Source of the DNA: a virus
Taxonomy: Duplodnaviria; Heunggongvirae; Uroviricota; Caudoviricetes
Direction: 5' to 3' (one strand)
IMG/VR virus record: IMGVR_UViG_2526164601_000022
Length of the DNA: 17,593 nt
Below, piece by piece: positions 3,771-17,593 of the stretch. Every line of letters starts with the position of its first letter. The stretch's first letter is position 1. The notes beneath the pieces are model-generated. The model saw nothing but the letters and a program-made list of their open reading frames with translations, did no database searches and was not told the DNA's origin. The translations under genes and the position numbers were made by a program.

Positions 3771-4799
3771 ATGGGATTGTTTACGACCCGCCAGTTACTC
3801 GGTTATACCGAACAAAAAGTGAAATTTCGTGCGCTGTTTCTGGAGCTGTTTTTCCGCCGTACGGTGAATTTCCATACCGAAGAGGTGATGCTGGACAAAA
3901 TTACCGGAAAAACGCCGGTGGCGGCCTATGTCTCCCCGGTTGTTGAAGGAAAAGTGCTGCGTCATCGTGGTGGTGAAACCCGCGTGTTACGTCCGGGCTA
4001 CGTCAAGCCGAAACACGAATTTAATTACCAGCAGGCGGTTGAGCGTCTTCCCGGTGAAGATCCGGCTCAACTGAACGACCCGGCCTACCGTCGTCTGCGT
4101 ATCATCACCGATAACCTCAAACAGGAAGAGCATGCCATTGTCCAGGTGGAAGAAATGCAGGCGGTGAATGCCGTGCTGTATGGCAAATACACCATGGAAG
4201 GGGATCAGTTTGATACTGTCGAGGTGGATTTTGGACGCTCTGAAGGAAATAACATTGAGCAGGCCGACGGTAAAAAATGGTCTGAGCAGGACCGTGATAC
4301 GTTTGATCCGACGCATGATATTGACCTCTACTGCGATCAGGCCAGCGGTCTTGTGAATATTGCCATTATGGACGGTACTGTCTGGCGTCTGCTGAATGGT
4401 TTTAAGCTGTTCCGCGAAAAACTGGATACCCGTCGCGGCTCAAATTCACAACTCGAAACGGCAGTGAAAGACCTGGGGGCGGTGGTGTCTTTCAAAGGGT
4501 ATTACGGCGATCTGGCCATTGTGGTGGCGAAAACGTCTTATGTGGCAGAGGACGGTACCGAAAAACGTTATCTGCCGGAGGGCACGCTGGTCCTGGGAAA
4601 TACGGCTGCAGATGGGATCCGTTGTTACGGTGCCATTCAGGATGCGCAGGCGTTGTCCGAAGGTGTGGTGGCTTCTTCCCGTTACCCGAAACACTGGCTG
4701 ACCGTGGGCGATCCGGCCCGTGAATTTACCATGACGCAGTCCGCACCGCTGATGGTGCTGCCGGATCCGGATGAGTTTGTGGTGGTGCAGGTGAAATAA
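3771..4799 (+). CDS. E: Major capsid protein gpE
   Basis: 342 aa (lambda E 341); blocks LFLELFFRR, RPGYVKPKHE, DPAYRRLRII, EEMQAVNAVLYGKYTMEGD, LDTRRGSNSQLETAVKDLG, GDPAREFTMTQSAPLM match recalled lambda E. Confidence 0.93.
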   Translation: MGLFTTRQLLGYTEQKVKFRALFLELFFRRTVNFHTEEVMLDKITGKTPVAAYVSPVVEGKVLRHRGGETRVLRPGYVKPKHEFNYQQAVERLPGEDPAQLNDPAYRRLRIITDNLKQEEHAIVQVEEMQAVNAVLYGKYTMEGDQFDTVEVDFGRSEGNNIEQADGKKWSEQDRDTFDPTHDIDLYCDQASGLVNIAIMDGTVWRLLNGFKLFREKLDTRRGSNSQLETAVKDLGAVVSFKGYYGDLAIVVAKTSYVAEDGTEKRYLPEGTLVLGNTAADGIRCYGAIQDAQALSEGVVASSRYPKHWLTVGDPAREFTMTQSAPLMVLPDPDEFVVVQVK

Positions 4800-5234: not shown

Positions 5235-5433
5235 TTTTCAGAATGCCTTTGATGCTGCCCTTGCCGGGGTGGACAGCACGATTGTTGAAGTGATGGGGCT
5301 CTGTGCGCAGTTCACCTCGGGGGCACAGTGTGGCAGCGAAGTTCAGGGGGTTTTTGACGATCCGGAGTCGCTGGGGTTTGCCGGTAGCGGGGTCCGTATT
5401 GAAGGAAGCTGCCCGTCATTATTTAACTGGTAA
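5227..5433 (+). pseudogene. FII: Head-tail connector gpFII, C-terminally truncated (about 66 homologous codons, then NW-stop)
   Basis: MRDFQNAFDAALAGVDSTIVEVMG...GVFDDPESLGFAGSGVRIEGSCPSLF matches the first ~66 residues of recalled lambda FII (117 aa); reading frame ends at TAA 5431-5433 where homology stops. Confidence 0.7.
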
Positions 5434-10724: not shown

Positions 10725-11421
10725 TGCAGGATATTCACGAAGAAAGTCTGAACGAGTCGGTTAAATCAGAGCAGTCACCGCGGGTGGTGCTCTGGGAAAT
10801 TGACCTGACGGTGCAGGGCGGTGAGCGGTATTTTTTCTGTAATGAGCTGAATGAAAAAGGGGAGGCGGTCACCTGGCAGGGGCGGCAATATCAGGTATAC
10901 CCGATTGACGGCAGTGGCTTTGAGATGAACGGGAAGGGCAGCAGTGCCCGCCCGTCGCTGACGGTGTCGAATCTGTTCGGTCTGGTCACCGGAATGGCGG
11001 AGGACCTGCAGAGCCTGGTGGGGGCCACGGTGGTCCGCCGCCGGGTGTATGCCCGTTTTCTGGATGCGGTGAATTTTGTGGCGGGCAATCCGGAAGCGGA
11101 CCCGGAGCAGGAGCTGAGCGACCGCTGGGTGGTGGAGCAGATGTCAGAGCTGACGGCCATGACAGCCTCGTTTGTGCTGGCAACACCGACGGAGACGGAC
11201 GGAGCGCTGTTTCCCGGTCGCATTATGCTGGCGAATACCTGTATGTGGACCTACCGCTCTGATGAGTGTGGTTACACGGTCCTGCGGTGGCGGATGAGTT
11301 CGATAAACCCATCACCGATATCCGTAAGGACAGATGCAGCAAGTGCATGCGCGGGTGTGAGATGCGCGGCATGGTGGCTAATTTTGGCGGTTTCCTTTCC
11401 ATTAACAAACTTTCGCAGTAA
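10724..11421 (+). pseudogene. L: Minor tail protein gpL, 1-bp frameshift near codon 185 (or assembly indel)
   Basis: Residues 1-184 match recalled lambda L (…GRIMLANTCMWTYRSDECGY); the lambda-like C-terminus GPAVADEFDKPITDIRKDRCSKCMRGCEMRGMVANFGGFLSINKLSQ-stop continues from 11278 in frame +2 relative to the start, implying one missing base at 11276-11278. The uninterrupted track ORF (to 11731) is the out-of-frame readthrough. Confidence 0.75.
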
Positions 11422-11426
11422 ATCCA

Positions 11427-12170
11427 ATGACACAGACAGAATCAGCGATTCTGGCGCATGCCCGGCGGTGTGCGCCTGCGGAGTCGTGCGGCTTCGTGGT
11501 GAGAACGCCGGAGGGGGAGCGGTATATCCCTTGTGTGAATATCTCTGCAGAGCCGGAGGCGTATTTTCGTATTGCACCGGAAGACTGGCTGCGGGCAGAG
11601 ATGCAGGGGGAGATTGTGACACTGGTCCACAGTCATCCCGGTGGTCTGCCCTGGCTGAGCGAGGCCGACCGGCGGCTGCAGATAAAAAGTGCACTGTCCT
11701 GGTGGCTGGTCTGCCGGGGGGAAATTCATAAATTCCGCTGTGTGCCACATCTGACAGGACGGCGCTTTGAGCACGGGGTGACGGACTGTTACACGCTGTT
11801 CCGGGATGCCTACCATCTGGCGGGAATTGATATGCCGGATTTTGAGCGTGAGGATGACTGGTGGCGCAACGGTCAGAACCTTTACCTGGACAATATGGAG
11901 GCGACTGGTTTTTACAGGATTTCCCTGCCTTCCGCACAGCCTGGCGATATCCTGCTGTGCTGCTTTGGCGCATCGGTGGCCAATCATGCCGCCATATACT
12001 GCGGCAACGGTGAACTGCTTCACCATCTGCCTGAACAACTGAGTAAACGGGAGAGGTATTCCGAAAAATGGCAACGACGAACGCATTCAGCCTGGCGTCA
12101 CCGCCACTGGCACGTATCTGCCTTCACGGGGATTTACAACGATTTGGCCGCCGCCTCAGCCTGTATGTGA
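11427..12170 (+). CDS. K: Tail tip assembly protein gpK (JAB/MPN metalloprotease + NlpC/P60 domains)
   Basis: 247 aa; JAMM motif HSHPGGLPWLSEAD (HxHx7SxxD); C-terminal Cys/His region (GVTDCYTLF...NHAAIYCG...HH) consistent with NlpC/P60; 103-nt overlap with I as in lambda. Confidence 0.88.
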   Translation: MTQTESAILAHARRCAPAESCGFVVRTPEGERYIPCVNISAEPEAYFRIAPEDWLRAEMQGEIVTLVHSHPGGLPWLSEADRRLQIKSALSWWLVCRGEIHKFRCVPHLTGRRFEHGVTDCYTLFRDAYHLAGIDMPDFEREDDWWRNGQNLYLDNMEATGFYRISLPSAQPGDILLCCFGASVANHAAIYCGNGELLHHLPEQLSKRERYSEKWQRRTHSAWRHRHWHVSAFTGIYNDLAAASACM

Positions 12171-12748
12171 ACACGGCAGCGGAAGCCATCCGTGCCCTGT
12201 CGATGCAGATGCCGGGATTCCGCCGTCAGATGAACGAAGGCTGGTACCAGATACGTATTCGCGGTGAGGACACGGCACCGGAGGCGGTGTACGCCCGTCT
12301 TCACGAACAGCTGGGTGAGGGAACGGTCATCCACATTGTGCCGCGACTGGCCGGGGCCGGAAAGGGTGGACTGCAGATTGTGCTGGGGGCGGCAGCCATC
12401 GTGGGGTCGTTCTTCACGGCCGGGGCATCAATGGCGTTATGGGGTTCAGCCCTGGCAGCCGGTGGTTTTTCTGCCACCACGATGCTGTTTTCACTGGGGG
12501 CCAGCATGATTCTGGGTGGTGTGGCCCAGATGCTGGCCCCGAAGGCAAAAGCACCGGATTACCGCGCAACGGATAACGGCAGACAGAACACGTACTTTTC
12601 CTCACTGGACAACATGATTGCTCAGGGGAACCCGATGCCGGTGCCTTACGGTGAAATGCTGGTTGGCTCCCGCCGTATATCCCAGGACATCAGTACCCGT
12701 GATGAAGGCGGTGACGGGAAGGTGGTGGTTATCGGGCGGCAGGCATAA
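12068..12748 (+). CDS. I: Tail tip assembly protein gpI
   Basis: 226 aa (lambda I 223); MATTNAFSLASPPLARICLHGDLQRFGRR...GWYQIRI...VIHIVPRLAGA...QNTYFSSLDNM matches recalled lambda I. Confidence 0.9.
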   Translation: MATTNAFSLASPPLARICLHGDLQRFGRRLSLYVNTAAEAIRALSMQMPGFRRQMNEGWYQIRIRGEDTAPEAVYARLHEQLGEGTVIHIVPRLAGAGKGGLQIVLGAAAIVGSFFTAGASMALWGSALAAGGFSATTMLFSLGASMILGGVAQMLAPKAKAPDYRATDNGRQNTYFSSLDNMIAQGNPMPVPYGEMLVGSRRISQDISTRDEGGDGKVVVIGRQA

Positions 12749-12752
12749 AAGC

Positions 12753-12791
12753 GAAAAAATCCCGCAGTGCTCACGGACAGGAACTGCGGGA
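12753..12791 (-). terminator. Candidate intrinsic terminator for - strand transcription (distal to sodC)
   Basis: 9-bp inverted repeat TCCCGCAGT (12760-12768) / ACTGCGGGA (12783-12791), 14-nt loop; on the - strand the stem is followed by U6 (complement of A6 at 12753-12758). No U-tract on the + strand. Confidence 0.35.
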
Positions 12792-12901
12792 GAGTTACGA
12801 AGATTGAGTGTAAGGAATTATTCTTATGTCACGACAAAAACATTAACTCAGAGAGGGAGGATGTGCCGTTCTTTTCAGGGAGAAAGGATTTATCGTCCTG
12901 A

Positions 12902-12929
12902 GGAATAAAGGTAAGGGCCCGCCCTTACC
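12902..12929 (-). terminator. Candidate intrinsic terminator of sodC
   Basis: Perfect 9-bp inverted repeat GGTAAGGGC (12910-12918) / GCCCTTACC (12921-12929), 2-nt spacer; on the - strand followed by UUUAUUCC; 8 nt downstream of the sodC stop. Confidence 0.45.
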
Positions 12930-12936
12930 TGACTGA

Positions 12937-13464
12937 TTATTGAATGATGCCGCAGGCCATTCTCGCACCACCACCGCCCAGGGGCTCCGGATGGTCATGA
13001 TGGTTATCACCGCCAGCATGAAGCATGAGAGAACGCCCTTTAATCTCTTTTAATGAGTTCAGTCTCGGGGCCAGGACCGGGTAGTTCGCTTTTCCGTCAT
13101 GCGTCACGAACAGCGCAGGGAGGTCGCCCAGGTGTCCATCCGGAGACCAGGGGCCAAGATGTTTGCCGGTGTTTTTCGGGTCAAAGTGACCGCCAGCCGA
13201 TAATGCTGCGACCGGTTTTCCGTCTTTCAGTGCCGGGGCGCAATTTCCTTTTTCGTGCACATGAAAACCATGAATGCCTTCAGACAGAGAGTGAAGGGCT
13301 GGTGTGAACAGCAGACCGTAGGGGGTCTCCTGAATGGTTATTTTTCCAATGCTGACTTCTTTTCCGTCAGCACTGACAAGGTTCATTGGGACTTCCTGTT
13401 CTGCTGCGTATCCGCATGATGCTGCTGTCAGCATGGCAATGGCAGCAATGATTTTACATTTCAT
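12937..13464 (-). CDS. sodC: Periplasmic Cu,Zn superoxide dismutase (prophage cargo/moron)
   Basis: 175 aa from ATG at 13464-13462 with SD GAGGG 6 nt upstream; signal peptide [20 protein letters not shown]; Cu/Zn-SOD motifs [47 protein letters not shown]. The 344-aa track ORF is an upstream over-extension. Confidence 0.9.
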
Positions 13465-13597
13465 AAAACCCTCATTAATTCCGTTAACAGACTGAGCTTG
13501 CTGGTTACAGGGTAACAAACAGCGTTCTGATGATATCGCGCAATAGCTGTGCAATATCCTATCACTGCGATTAATAATACCAATTGAGAGGAACATT

Positions 13598-16500
13598 ATG
13601 GGTAAAGGTGGCGGCAGGGCGCACACACCTCGTGAGGCGAAGGACAATCTCAAATCCACGCAGATGATGAGCGTGATTGACGCCATTGGTGAAGGGCCGA
13701 TTGAAGGTCCGGTGAAGGGGCTGCAGAGTATCCTGGTGAACAAAACCCCGCTGACGGACACGGACGGTAATCCTGTGATACATGGTGTGACCGCGGTCTG
13801 GCGCGCCGGGGAGCAGGAGCAGACACCACCTGAAGGCTTTGAGTCCTCCGGGGCGGAAACCGCACTGGGCGTGGAAGTGACGAAGGCAAAGCCGGTGACG
13901 CGCACCATTACATCCGCGAACATTGACCGCCTGCGGGTCACCTTCGGGGTGCAGTCACTGGTGCAGACCACGTCAAAGGGTGACCGAAACCCGACATCCG
14001 TCCGACTGCTGATTCAGTTACAGCGTAACGGTAACTGGGTGACGGAAAAGGATGTCACCATTAACGGCAAGACCACCTCGCAGTTTCTGGCGTCGGTGAT
14101 TCTGGATAATCTGCCTGAGCGGCCCTTTAACATCCGGATGGTCCGGGAGACAGCGGACAGCACCTCGGACCAGCTGCAGAATAAGACGCTCTGGTCGTCA
14201 TACACCGAAATCATCGATGTGAAACAGTGCTACCCGAACACGGCGATTGTGGGGCTGCAGGTGGATGCGGAGCAGTTCGGCGGCCAGCAGATGACGGTGA
14301 ACTACCATATCCGCGGTCGCATCATCCAGGTGCCGTCAAACTATGACCCGGAAAAACGCACGTACAGTGGTATCTGGGACGGCAGTCTGAAACCGGCATA
14401 CAGCAACAACCCGGCCTGGTGTCTGTGGGACATGCTGACTCACCCGCGCTACGGCATGGGAAAACGTCTGGGGGCGGCGGATGTGGACAAGTGGGCGCTG
14501 TATGCCATCGGGCAGTACTGCGACCAGACGGTCCCGGATGGTTTCGGGGGGACCGAGCCGCGGATGACCTTTAATGCGTACCTGGCACAACAGCGTAAGG
14601 CGTGGGACGTTCTCAGTGATTTCTGCTCTGCGATGCGCTGTATGCCGGTATGGAACGGTCAGACGCTGACGTTCGTTCAGGACCGCCCGTCGGATGTGGT
14701 GTGGCCGTACACCAACAGCGATGTGGTGGTGGATGATAACGGCGTGGGATTCCGCTACAGCTTCAGTGCCCTGAAGGACCGGCACACGGCGGTGGAGGTG
14801 AATTACACCGACCCGCAGAACGGCTGGCAGACCTCCACGGAACTGGTGGAAGACCCGGAAGCCATACTGCGCTACGGACGCAACCTGCTGAAGATGGACG
14901 CGTTCGGCTGTACCAGCCGCGGTCAGGCCCACCGTGCCGGACTGTGGGTGATAAAGACCGAACTGCTGGAAACGCAGACGGTGGATTTCACGCTCGGGTC
15001 TCAGGGGCTGCGGCACACACCCGGTGACATTATTGAAATCTGTGATAATGACTATGCCGGGACCCTGACCGGCGGACGTGTCCTGTCCATTGATGCTGCC
15101 ACCCGCACCCTGACGCTGGACCGTGAGGTGACCCTGCCGGAGACAGGTGCCGCCACGGTGAACCTGATTAACGGCAGCGGTAAGCCGGTGAGTGTGGCCA
15201 TCACTGCACACCCCGCGCCGGACCGGATACAGGTCAGCACCCTGCCTGATGGTGTGGAGACATACGGTGTATGGGGACTCTCCCTGCCGTCACTGCGTCG
15301 TCGCCTGTTCCGCTGTGTCTCCATCCGGGAAAACACGGACGGCACCTTTGCCATCACGGCGGTGCAGCACGTACCGGAAAAGAAGCCATCGTGGATAACG
15401 GGGCCAGCTTTGAGCCGCAGTCAGGCACCCTGAACAGCGTTATTCCACCGGCAGTGCAGCACCTGACGGTGGAGGTGAGCGCGGCTGACGGTCAGTATCT
15501 GGCACAGGCGAAATGGGACACGCCGCGGGTGGTGAAGGGTGTGCGCTTCAGTCTGCGCCTGACCAGCGGAAGCGGAGAAGACAGCCGTCTGGTGACCACC
15601 GCCATCACTGCGGATACAGAGCATCGTTTCAGTGGTCTGCCGCTCGGGGAATACACCCTGACAGTCAGGGCAATTAACAGTTATGGCCAGCAGGGGAACC
15701 GGCCACCACCACGTTCAGGATTAATGCACCTGCGGTACCGCCACGATTGAGCTGACACCGGGCTATTTTCAGATAACAGCGGTCCCGCGTCTTGCGGTGT
15801 ATGACCCGACGGTACAGTTTGAGTTCTGGTTTTCGGAGGCAAAAATCGCAGACATATCTCAGGTGGAAACCTCTGCCCGTTATCTGGGGACCGGCAGTCA
15901 GTGGAGTGTATCCGGCCCGCACATTAAGCCCGGGAAGGATTTCTGGTTTTACGTGCGCAGCGTCAACCTGGTGGGGAAATCTGCTTTTGTGGAAGCCAGT
16001 GGCCGGGCCAGCAATGATGCAGAAGGGTATCTGGGACTGTTTCGGGAAAAAATAGGAAAACTGCATCTGGCTCAGGGGCTGTGGGAGCTGATAGACAACA
16101 GCCAGCTTGCGGATGAGATGGCGGAGATGAAGACCACCATCACCGAAACCCGCAATGAAATCACACAGACGGTCAGTAAAACGCTGGAAGACCAGAGCGC
16201 CACCATACAGCAGATACAGCGCGTGCAGAAGGACACAAATGATGACCTTGCTGCACTTTACATGCTGAAGGTACAGAAAACAAAAAATGGCATACCCTAT
16301 GTTGCCGGTATTGGAGCGGGGATTGAGGATACTGATGGCCAGCCCCTGAGCAACATACTGCTGCTGGCTGACCGTATTGCGATGATTAACCCGGAGGACG
16401 GCAACACCACGCCGTTATTTGTGGCGCAGGGGAATCAGTTGTTCATGAACGATGTGTTCCTGAAGCGGCTGTTTGCGGTGAGTATCACCTCGTCCGGCAA

Positions 16501-17069
16501 TCCCCCGACGTTTTCCCTGACGCCGGAGGGCAGGCTGACCGCAAGAAATGCTGATATCAGCGGTAACGTGAATGCGAATTCCGGGACGCTCAACAACGTC
16601 ACGATTAACGAGAACTGTCGGGTTCTGGGAAAACTGTCCGCGAACCAGATTGAAGGCGATCTCGTTAAAACAGTGGGCAAAGCTTTCCCCCGGGATTCCC
16701 GTGCACCGGAGCGGTGGCCATCAGGGACCATTACCGTCAGGGTTTATGACGATCAGCCGTTTGACCGACAAATTGTTATTCCGGCGGTGGCATTCAGCGG
16801 CGCTAAGCATGAGAGAGAGCATACTGATATTTACTCCTCATGCCGTCTGATAGTGCGGAAAAAACGGTGCTGAAATTTATAACCGTACCGCGCTGGATAA
16901 TACGCTGATTTACAGTGGCGTTATTGATATGCCTGCCGGTCACGGTCACATGACGCTGGAGTTTTCGGTATCAGCATGGCTGGTGAATAACTGGTATCCC
17001 ACAGCAAGTATCAGCGATTTGCTGGTTGTGGTGATGAAGAAAGCCACCGCAGGCATCAGTATCAGCTGA
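13598..17069 (+). pseudogene. J: Central tail fiber / host specificity protein gpJ, interrupted by four 1-bp indels (or assembly errors)
   Basis: Colinear with recalled lambda J (1132 aa) from [22 protein letters not shown] to the C-terminal ...[14 protein letters not shown]-stop (17067-17069), but homology hops frames at ~15378-15381 (A4, -1), ~15693-15696 (G4, -1), ~15744-15746 (-1) and 16859-16864 (A6, +1). SD GAGAGGAACATT before ATG 13598. Confidence 0.8.
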
Positions 17070-17088
17070 ATTTTATAACCCATATACG

Positions 17089-17112
17089 GGCGCCAGAAAT
17101 GGCGCCTTTTTT
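17089..17112 (+). terminator. Intrinsic terminator downstream of J
   Basis: 7-bp stem GGCGCCA (17089-17095) / TGGCGCC (17100-17106) with GAAA tetraloop, immediately followed by T6 (17107-17112); 20 nt after the repaired J stop. Confidence 0.6.
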
Positions 17113-17136
17113 ATTGCAGAAAAGCGAGAGGTAATT

Positions 17137-17593
17137 ATGCGTAAACTTTATGCCGCCATTTTGTCCGCAGCCATTTGTCTGGCCGTATCCGGTGCGCCTG
17201 CATGGGCGTCTGAACATCAGTCCACGCTGAGCGCGGGGTATCTTCATGTCTCGACGAACGTTCCTGGCAGCGATGAACTGAACGGGATTAACGTGAAATA
17301 CCGTTATGAGTTTACGGACACTCTGGGAATGGTGACGTCATTCAGCTATGCAGGAGACAAGAATCGCCAGCTGACCCGTTACAGCGATACCCGCTGGCAT
17401 GAAGATTCCGTGCGTAACCGCTGGTTCAGCGTGATGGCGGGGCCGTCTGTGCGCGTGAATGAATGGTTCAGCGCGTATGCGATGGCGGGTGTGGCTTACA
17501 GCCGTGTGTCGACTTTCTCCGGGGATTATCTTCGCGTAACTGACAACAAGGGGAAAACGCACGATGTGCTGACCGGAAGTGATGACGGTCGCC
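17137..17593 (+). CDS. lom: Ail/Lom-family outer membrane protein (partial; continues past window end)
   Basis: ORF open from ATG 17137 (SD GAGAGG 5 nt upstream) to window end, 152 codons; signal peptide MRKLYAAILSAAICLAVSGAPAWA; GINVKYRYEFTD, SVMAGPSVRVN, SAYAMAGVAYSR match recalled lambda Lom blocks. Absent from the ORF track because it has no in-window stop. Confidence 0.8.
   Translation, partial: MRKLYAAILSAAICLAVSGAPAWASEHQSTLSAGYLHVSTNVPGSDELNGINVKYRYEFTDTLGMVTSFSYAGDKNRQLTRYSDTRWHEDSVRNRWFSVMAGPSVRVNEWFSAYAMAGVAYSRVSTFSGDYLRVTDNKGKTHDVLTGSDDGR

Follow-up and report, generated by a model that had tools for sequence, protein, structure and literature searches.

What is a gene that reads against its neighbours doing in the middle of a phage tail operon, and does it serve the phage, the lysogen or neither? 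The question is raised by IMG/VR record IMGVR_UViG_2526164601_000022 (Caudoviricetes), a stretch of 17,593 bp, henceforth the window, which is the whole of contig AIGO01000013.1 of draft assembly GCA_000249975.2. A preliminary description, made from the sequence alone, had reported that tail genes I and J lie some 850 bp apart with one intact minus-strand gene between them. This proved right: the distance is 849 bp (12749–13597), and the gene, sodC, is predicted to encode a Cu,Zn superoxide dismutase (SOD) of the SodC-F type. We read the region as a classical prophage moron, that is, a self-contained lysogenic-conversion gene for a periplasmic enzyme of this type, lying backwards between I and J of a lambda-like prophage, and give this reading a probability of about 0.9. 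The three genes concerned are the following.

12937 to 13464, minus strand: sodC coding sequence, ATG at 13464, stop at 12937–12939, 175 amino acids plus stop; predicted SodC-F type Cu,Zn superoxide dismutase

12068 to 12748, plus strand: tail assembly gene I (Pfam Lambda_tail_I, 5.6e-16), TAA at 12746–12748; RefSeq copies are annotated 'tail assembly protein'

13598 to 16873, plus strand: tail tip gene J (FNIII-A_GpJ, 3e-42; Phage-tail_3, 1.4e-38), in three open reading frames (ORFs), 13598–15433, 15271–15750 and 15797–16873

The assignment of the gene product begins with profile searches. The protein matched Sod_Cu (Pfam PF00080) at 3.9e-32, with 111.9 bits against a cut-off of 28.9, as well as the NCBIfam SodC equivalog NF007628 (218.4 bits, cut-off 165) and PHROG 1975, 'superoxide dismutase precursor', of the moron category (9.5e-97). 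Its relatives in the PDB, at 1e-56 to 1e-62, were 1z9n, 2wwn, 1eqw, 6d52 (labelled SOD [Cu-Zn] 1) and 1eso. The metal-ligand motifs of a Cu,Zn-SOD, already pointed out in the preliminary description, held in an alignment with Fels-1 SodCIII, Gifsy-2 SodCI and others, in which all ligands were invariant: H68, H70, H93 and H149 for copper and H93, H102, H111 and D114 for zinc, with H93 as the bridging residue. Equally invariant were the disulfide cysteines C75 and C171 and the catalytic R168; these roles are ones we take to follow from homology to human SOD1 numbering. The N-terminus carries a predicted export signal with two alternative processing sites, for signal peptidase I (SpI) and signal peptidase II (SpII).

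13414 to 13464, minus strand: signal peptide region, residues 1–17 or 1–20, with an AASC lipobox (SpII) or cleavage at CGYA/A (SpI)

By inspection this leader has a positive n-region, a hydrophobic core, a GYA/A site (followed by AEQ) and the AASC lipobox, and it agrees with the LipoP-based description of SodC-F1 and SodC-F2 (PMC2569942). The translation is identical to those of the copies L001, L002 and L004 among the loci compared. Against the divergent copy of E. coli cM8a (see below) the dN/dS ratio is 0.13, and sodC is under purifying selection. Judged by its sequence, the gene is a bona fide periplasmic-type Cu,Zn-SOD.

Prophage sodC genes of the SodC-F type have already been described and characterised in O157:H7. 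SodC-F1 and SodC-F2, from prophages CP-933R and CP-933V, share the RefSeq protein WP_000649829.1 with the window translation. The two are one residue apart, and the window protein is assigned to the SodC-F type as a whole. They resemble it in their lambdoid-prophage location, in the AASC lipobox and in the SpI site between residues 20 and 21. The same protein, identical to that of the window, lies between I and J in O157:H7 PV15-279. The differences from SodC-F1/F2 come down to a stem shorter by one base pair in T1, one of two hairpins treated below, and frameshifts in tail genes L and J of the window, nothing of substance.

What is published of these enzymes bears directly on the gene studied here. 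SodC-F1/F2 are processed by SpI between residues 20 and 21 or by SpII at AASC, which removes 16 residues, and the specific activity of SodC-F1 is 19380 U/mg (PMC2569942). The prophage-encoded protein accumulates in lysogens in logarithmic and stationary phase and in anaerobiosis (D'Orazio et al. 2008, PMC2569942). When the 299 bp preceding sodC-F were fused to lacZ, the fusion reportedly was not under rpoS control (data not shown there), and the promoter was left unmapped within that fragment (PMC2569942). Deletion mutants in sodC-F are more sensitive to peroxide, and inside Caco-2 cells SodC-F rises relative to chromosomal SodC (PMC2569942). The SodC-F enzyme is a dimer with higher activity, stability and protease resistance, and is partly anchored to the membrane through its lipobox, whereas the chromosomal SodC is monomeric, less active, less stable and fully soluble, is RpoS-dependent and appears only in aerobic stationary phase (PMC2569942). 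The chromosomal E. coli enzyme (PDB 1eso, 1.4e-56) has the same family and fold and is likewise periplasmic; its identity to the window SodC is about 59%, an approximate value.

How much of the 849 bp belongs to sodC can be read from relatives in which the gene is lacking, the closest of which are Stx1a- and Stx2c-converting phages such as that of locus L003. In a pairwise alignment with L003 the window runs unbroken from I to 12854/12855 and resumes exactly at the ATG of J; where the window has 12856–13597, relatives of the L003 type have 130 bp of unrelated sequence. The region thus divides into two parts.

12856 to 13597, minus strand: variable sodC module, 742 bp, comprising T1, sodC, the sodC 5' region and the J ribosome-binding site

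12749 to 12855, no strand: backbone spacer after I, 107 bp, GC 0.430, common to sodC-less Stx1a/Stx2c phages and outside the sodC module

The spacer is conserved in five variants of the slot between I and J, and the J ribosome-binding site, GAGAGGA at 13586–13592, lies inside the module. The latter is 742 bp long in the window, whereas the listed copies from complete genomes all have 744 bp. Because the closest sodC-less relatives have a spacer that shares 12749–12855, we place the replacement inside a pre-existing spacer. On these alignments, the 742-bp module appears to have replaced a segment of about 130 bp, and not to have entered as a clean insertion of 850 bp. The preliminary description, which had taken the whole of some 850 bp for one cassette, was correct that sodC comes with extra DNA; its limits have to be drawn in to 12856–13597, the remainder being backbone.

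The older delimitation does have some logic. If the 849 bp, both terminators included, were a single cassette set between otherwise adjacent genes, this would fit the gap of only about 50–60 bp between I and J in lambda-type phages (in Lambda_4C10, 1597 bases of the query are matched over 1648 bp; the start of lambda J is at 15505) and the orientation of the two hairpins, which is that of sodC. We nevertheless consider it quite improbable. The relevant comparison is with the closest sodC-less relatives, whose I–J spacers measure 238–342 bp and which match 12749–12855, the second hairpin (T2) included, nearly base for base. Across phage records of this tail family the spacer sizes are about 238, 245, 251–259, 342 and 851 bp.

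A second lineage of the cassette also speaks against a single 849-bp unit. In E. coli cM8a (L088, 2775–3678) a sodC gene lies reversed in the same slot with 79% nucleotide and 81% amino-acid identity to that of the window, and the left junction of this cassette keeps about 57 nt more of the sodC-less module. This suggests that the spacer was already there when sodC arrived, and that further parts of it were lost later from the common cassette. Together with sodCIII of Salmonella Fels-1, the slot between I and J therefore holds a reversed sodC in three diverged lineages (the common E. coli module, the cM8a variant and Fels-1), which suggests that the association is old and has been exchanged repeatedly.

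The common module is widespread. It was found in 547 of 5426 complete E. coli genomes (about 10%), in 724 copies with at most five per genome, and also in two Stx2a-converting phage records; the serotypes include O157:H7, O55:H7, O111, O103 and O145, among others. Identity to the window module is at least 99% in 542 of 549 records, and the O157:H7 module DNA is 99.7% identical, differing by 2 bases in T1 alone. A query spanning I, the module and J was covered to at least 80% in 546 complete E. coli records, as against 549 that match a query of the module by itself, so that its location between I and J is essentially fixed. The flanking tail genes of the same records differ by about 1.5–5%, and between the window and L002, the closest complete genome, there are zero mismatches over 13000–13499. 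An invariant sodC beside diverged tail genes is consistent with recent spread by recombination between prophages, with strong constraint, or with both.

These counts also bear on whether the arrangement could be an assembly artefact, a chimeric contig or a collapsed repeat from a strain with several similar prophages. The window is indeed an entire 17.6-kb contig made of late genes of a multi-copy prophage, and it has indels of its own; but I, sodC and J are contiguous in the 546 complete genome records and in phage records, and the chance that assembly has created this order is practically negligible. Outside this family, a scan of species-representative genomes returned, among the matches listed, only chromosomal sodC genes of 47–69% identity (Serratia, Pseudomonas and others), and lambda-like tail genes were found near none of those loci, which says little on the origin of the gene.

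If the gene is to work as a moron it should carry its own expression signals, and the following elements were identified.

13469 to 13473, minus strand: sodC Shine-Dalgarno sequence GAGGG, 4 nt from the ATG, also present in the cM8a variant

12899 to 12930, minus strand: predicted terminator hairpin T1, borne by the module; stem-loop 12909–12930, 6 nt past the sodC stop, then UUUAUUCCUC (from a terminator scan and folding)

12754 to 12791, minus strand: predicted terminator hairpin T2, part of the backbone; 9-bp stem 12783–12791/12760–12768, loop of 14 nt, UUUUUU at 12754–12759

13465 to 13597, minus strand: sodC 5' region, 133 bp, divergent from J, GC 0.398

The Shine-Dalgarno sequence had been noted in the preliminary description and is where it was said to be. 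Hairpin terminators on the sodC strand had been claimed as well; two hairpins with T-runs were indeed found, of which T2 belongs to the backbone and not to the module. T2 folds at -16.1 kcal/mol (z = -3.30, with 1 of 200 shuffles as good), and its stem recurs, with loops of differing length, in each of the five further slot variants that were examined; as a structural prediction it is likely to be a back-up terminator for sodC. T1 folds at -14.1 kcal/mol in the window and at -17.4 kcal/mol in L002. The window lacks one G and one C relative to the other copies (indels at 12918 and 12922), one in each arm, leaving a stem of 9 bp instead of 10 bp that is still fully paired; the cause is a paired change or else an undercall in a homopolymer. 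Both T1 and T2 are predicted to terminate transcription.

Base composition sets the region apart. The impression, originally gained by eye, that the cassette is more AT-rich than its surroundings could be put into figures: the 849-bp stretch has a GC of 0.494, lower than any other stretch of that length in the contig (mean 0.565, standard deviation 0.029). GC at third codon positions is 0.506 in sodC as compared with 0.665 in I and 0.737 in J, and the base composition of sodC is foreign to the neighbouring phage genes.

Transcription is presumed to start in 13465–13597 or in the first 170 bp or so of J. Two leads came out of a lenient promoter scan and of conservation in the 79%-identical cM8a lineage. 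One is a candidate extended -10-like element, TGGTATTAT (TGnTATnAT), at 13574–13582; the other is a candidate TATCAT at 13530–13535, within 32 nt over which the two E. coli lineages do not differ. Both are offered as leads only. Salmonella sodCI is under PhoPQ regulation, and by analogy with it a PhoP box was sought by eye in GCTGTTTGTTACCCTGTAACC; one half-site fits, the second half is not conserved in cM8a, and the candidate was dropped. An Rfam scan of 12300–14000 (E up to 1) gave chance-level matches only, STnc400 with 20 bits (gathering score 80) and one snoRNA. Two small ORFs in the region were likewise judged to be due to chance: a minus-strand ORF of 58 amino acids at 12843–13019, which overlaps the 3' end of sodC out of frame, and a plus-strand ORF of 15 codons at 12865–12912, in which (by inspection) there is zero spacing between an SD-like GGGAGG and the ATG.

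Several of these results weigh against reading the region as a self-contained moron. A strict scan for a sigma-70 consensus promoter found none, and the lenient scan gave only weak candidates with 8 of 12 matches. The U-tract of T1 is interrupted and its fold is ordinary compared with shuffles (z = -1.47). The contig is a draft with indels unseen in complete genomes, so that details such as the shortened T1 stem may be errors. Independent transcription of sodC in this strain is thus argued by homology to the characterised copies. The idea, advanced at the outset, of a lysogenic-conversion gene independent of the late operon keeps its support from the antisense orientation, from the gene's own ribosome-binding site and terminators and from the published expression of the O157:H7 copies in lysogens; a convincing sigma-70 consensus promoter, visible in the sequence, is the part that did not materialise.

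The same facts could be turned the other way, with sodC serving the phage during lytic growth, e.g. by protecting the infected cell, and being expressed only with, or on account of, late transcription and not in the lysogen. In favour of this, sodC sits within the late structural operon, and its sequence shows no clear promoter of its own. Its strand is one objection: since sodC lies opposite to the late operon, late transcription would yield only antisense sodC RNA. The presence of its own ribosome-binding site and terminators is a second objection, and the accumulation of the matching O157:H7 SodC-F enzymes in uninduced lysogens (PMC2569942) a third. Finally, in O157:H7 PV15-279 sodC is intact beside a J annotated as frameshifted, which implies selection independent of virion production. 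We regard a lytic role as very improbable, and the moron reading accounts for the orientation of the gene and for its published expression.

Two Salmonella prophages allow the comparison to be widened. The lambda-like tail module of Fels-1 likewise holds a reversed sodC, sodCIII (STM0924), between its homologues of I and J, with the metal ligands conserved; this gene differs in having only 60% amino-acid identity, an upstream region that aligns unconvincingly and a leader without the Cys of the AASC lipobox. Gifsy-2 sodCI (STM1044) is also prophage-borne and antisense to the tail operon, and has one region of 10 residues in common with the window SodC, but it is reversed in another slot, between the lom/M and L homologues, and its identity is 59%. 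In a Gifsy-2 lysogen, RNA-seq found the lytic genes silent and sodCI highly expressed (PMC7067206); Gifsy-2 SodCI is dimeric (PMC2569942).

Set against morons in general, a concept that goes back to Hendrix and Juhala for lambdoid phages and of which lom and bor of lambda are examples, the window sodC shows the familiar traits. It is a single extra gene between genes that are closer together in relatives (849 bp between I and J here, 238–342 bp in those without sodC), with deviant base composition and, as the characterised copies would have it, expression from the prophage. Its own terminator is present as a structural prediction: of the two hairpins on the strand of sodC, T1 belongs to the module and T2 to the backbone. 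It departs from the lambdoid examples in being antisense to the late operon, where lom is in sense orientation, and in showing no promoter recognisable by consensus.

The state of the surrounding genes raises the question of whether sodC is an inert remnant in a decaying prophage. Compared with L002, the window has 1-bp indels in L (at 11282) and in J (at 15378, 15696, 15738 and 16859). The first extends L out of frame to 335 amino acids, and those in J split it into the three ORFs given above, on each of which Pfam J domains are present. Three of the five coding indels of L and J fall in homopolymer runs, and the one at 15378 is shared by none of the complete E. coli genomes against which it was tested. 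A further 327 bp, present in all close relatives, are missing at 5424/5425, and with them the 3' part of an FII-like head-tail joining gene and the 5' part of the Z-like tail gene that follows; this junction is in no complete E. coli genome tested. Errors of sequencing or real decay of the prophage may account for the indels of L and J. Tail genes do decay beside an intact sodC: in the complete genome of O157:H7 PV15-279 (L092, 2245–3744) an identical sodC has as its neighbour a J annotated as a frameshifted pseudogene.

The five 1-bp indels in L and J and the 327-bp FII/Z deletion relative to complete genomes are what would speak for an inert sodC. The gene itself tells otherwise: its frame is intact with a translation identical to three other copies, 542 of 549 records match the module at 99% or more, all catalytic residues are present and dN/dS is 0.13. 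The indels, moreover, may be draft-sequencing errors, the window being a whole draft contig. That sodC is a mere relic is hardly credible, and the moron reading is retained for what follows.

We can then sketch how such a moron might work. In the lysogen, with the late operon silent, RNA polymerase would start within the 133 AT-rich bp that separate sodC from J, or slightly inside J, transcribe sodC away from J and stop at T1 or, failing that, at the stronger backbone hairpin T2 near the end of I. The hairpins are observed features, and termination at them is what we infer. A stop at either would therefore keep antisense transcription out of the tail genes. The pre-protein would be exported through Sec and cleaved by SpI after Ala20 to give a soluble periplasmic enzyme, or alternatively processed by SpII at the AASC lipobox to give a membrane-anchored one, a processing published for O157:H7 SodC-F. 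With copper and zinc bound, the enzyme would dismutate superoxide arriving from outside the cell, e.g. from a phagocyte or epithelial oxidative burst. During lytic growth, read-through of the late operon would presumably make antisense sodC RNA.

In enterohaemorrhagic E. coli and in Salmonella, SodC from prophages is established as a factor of fitness and virulence that removes host-derived superoxide in the periplasm, and the sodC described here only confirms that the draft contig belongs to that prophage family. The additions are modest: a mobile unit defined as 742 bp, the assignment of one terminator to the backbone, a slot common to three lineages and a prevalence of about 10%.

The slot itself has features of its own when sodC is lacking. 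A minus-strand terminator-like hairpin directly after I is kept in every variant examined, even where there is no minus-strand gene (L003, 1757–1987; L089, L090 and L091). A plus-strand hairpin with a T-run occurs in three of four sodC-less variants, with one compensatory pair (GGCATCC/GGATGCC versus GGCACCC/GGGTGCC), and the sodC-less spacer of PPompW has another hairpin instead, set between an A-run and T-rich sequence. An Rfam scan of the sodC-less spacer in L003 found no match. One may speculate that the I–J spacer is a structured regulatory slot, with a small transcript or attenuator that sets the expression of J against that of the upstream tail genes, an idea that we hold to be doubtful. 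If it were true, the sodC module would have displaced this element and given J a new ribosome-binding site, and carriage of sodC would also alter the expression of the tail-tip gene.

Elsewhere in the contig, comparison with L002 showed a 5-bp deletion (CGGTT) at 11426, in the short intergenic spacer between L and K. Mismatches to the closest genome are clustered, with 41 per 500 bp at 4000–4499 (major capsid gene) and 31 at 17000–17499 (end of J and start of lom) as compared with 0–17 elsewhere, and these clusters are probably patches of mosaic recombination. Finally, 80 nt at 12034–12113, in the K/I overlap, match MT713136.1 at 253765–253844 with 97.5% identity; this is the extreme end of the 254-kb record of Aeromonas phage AP1, and the match probably reflects contamination or a chimeric end in that record.

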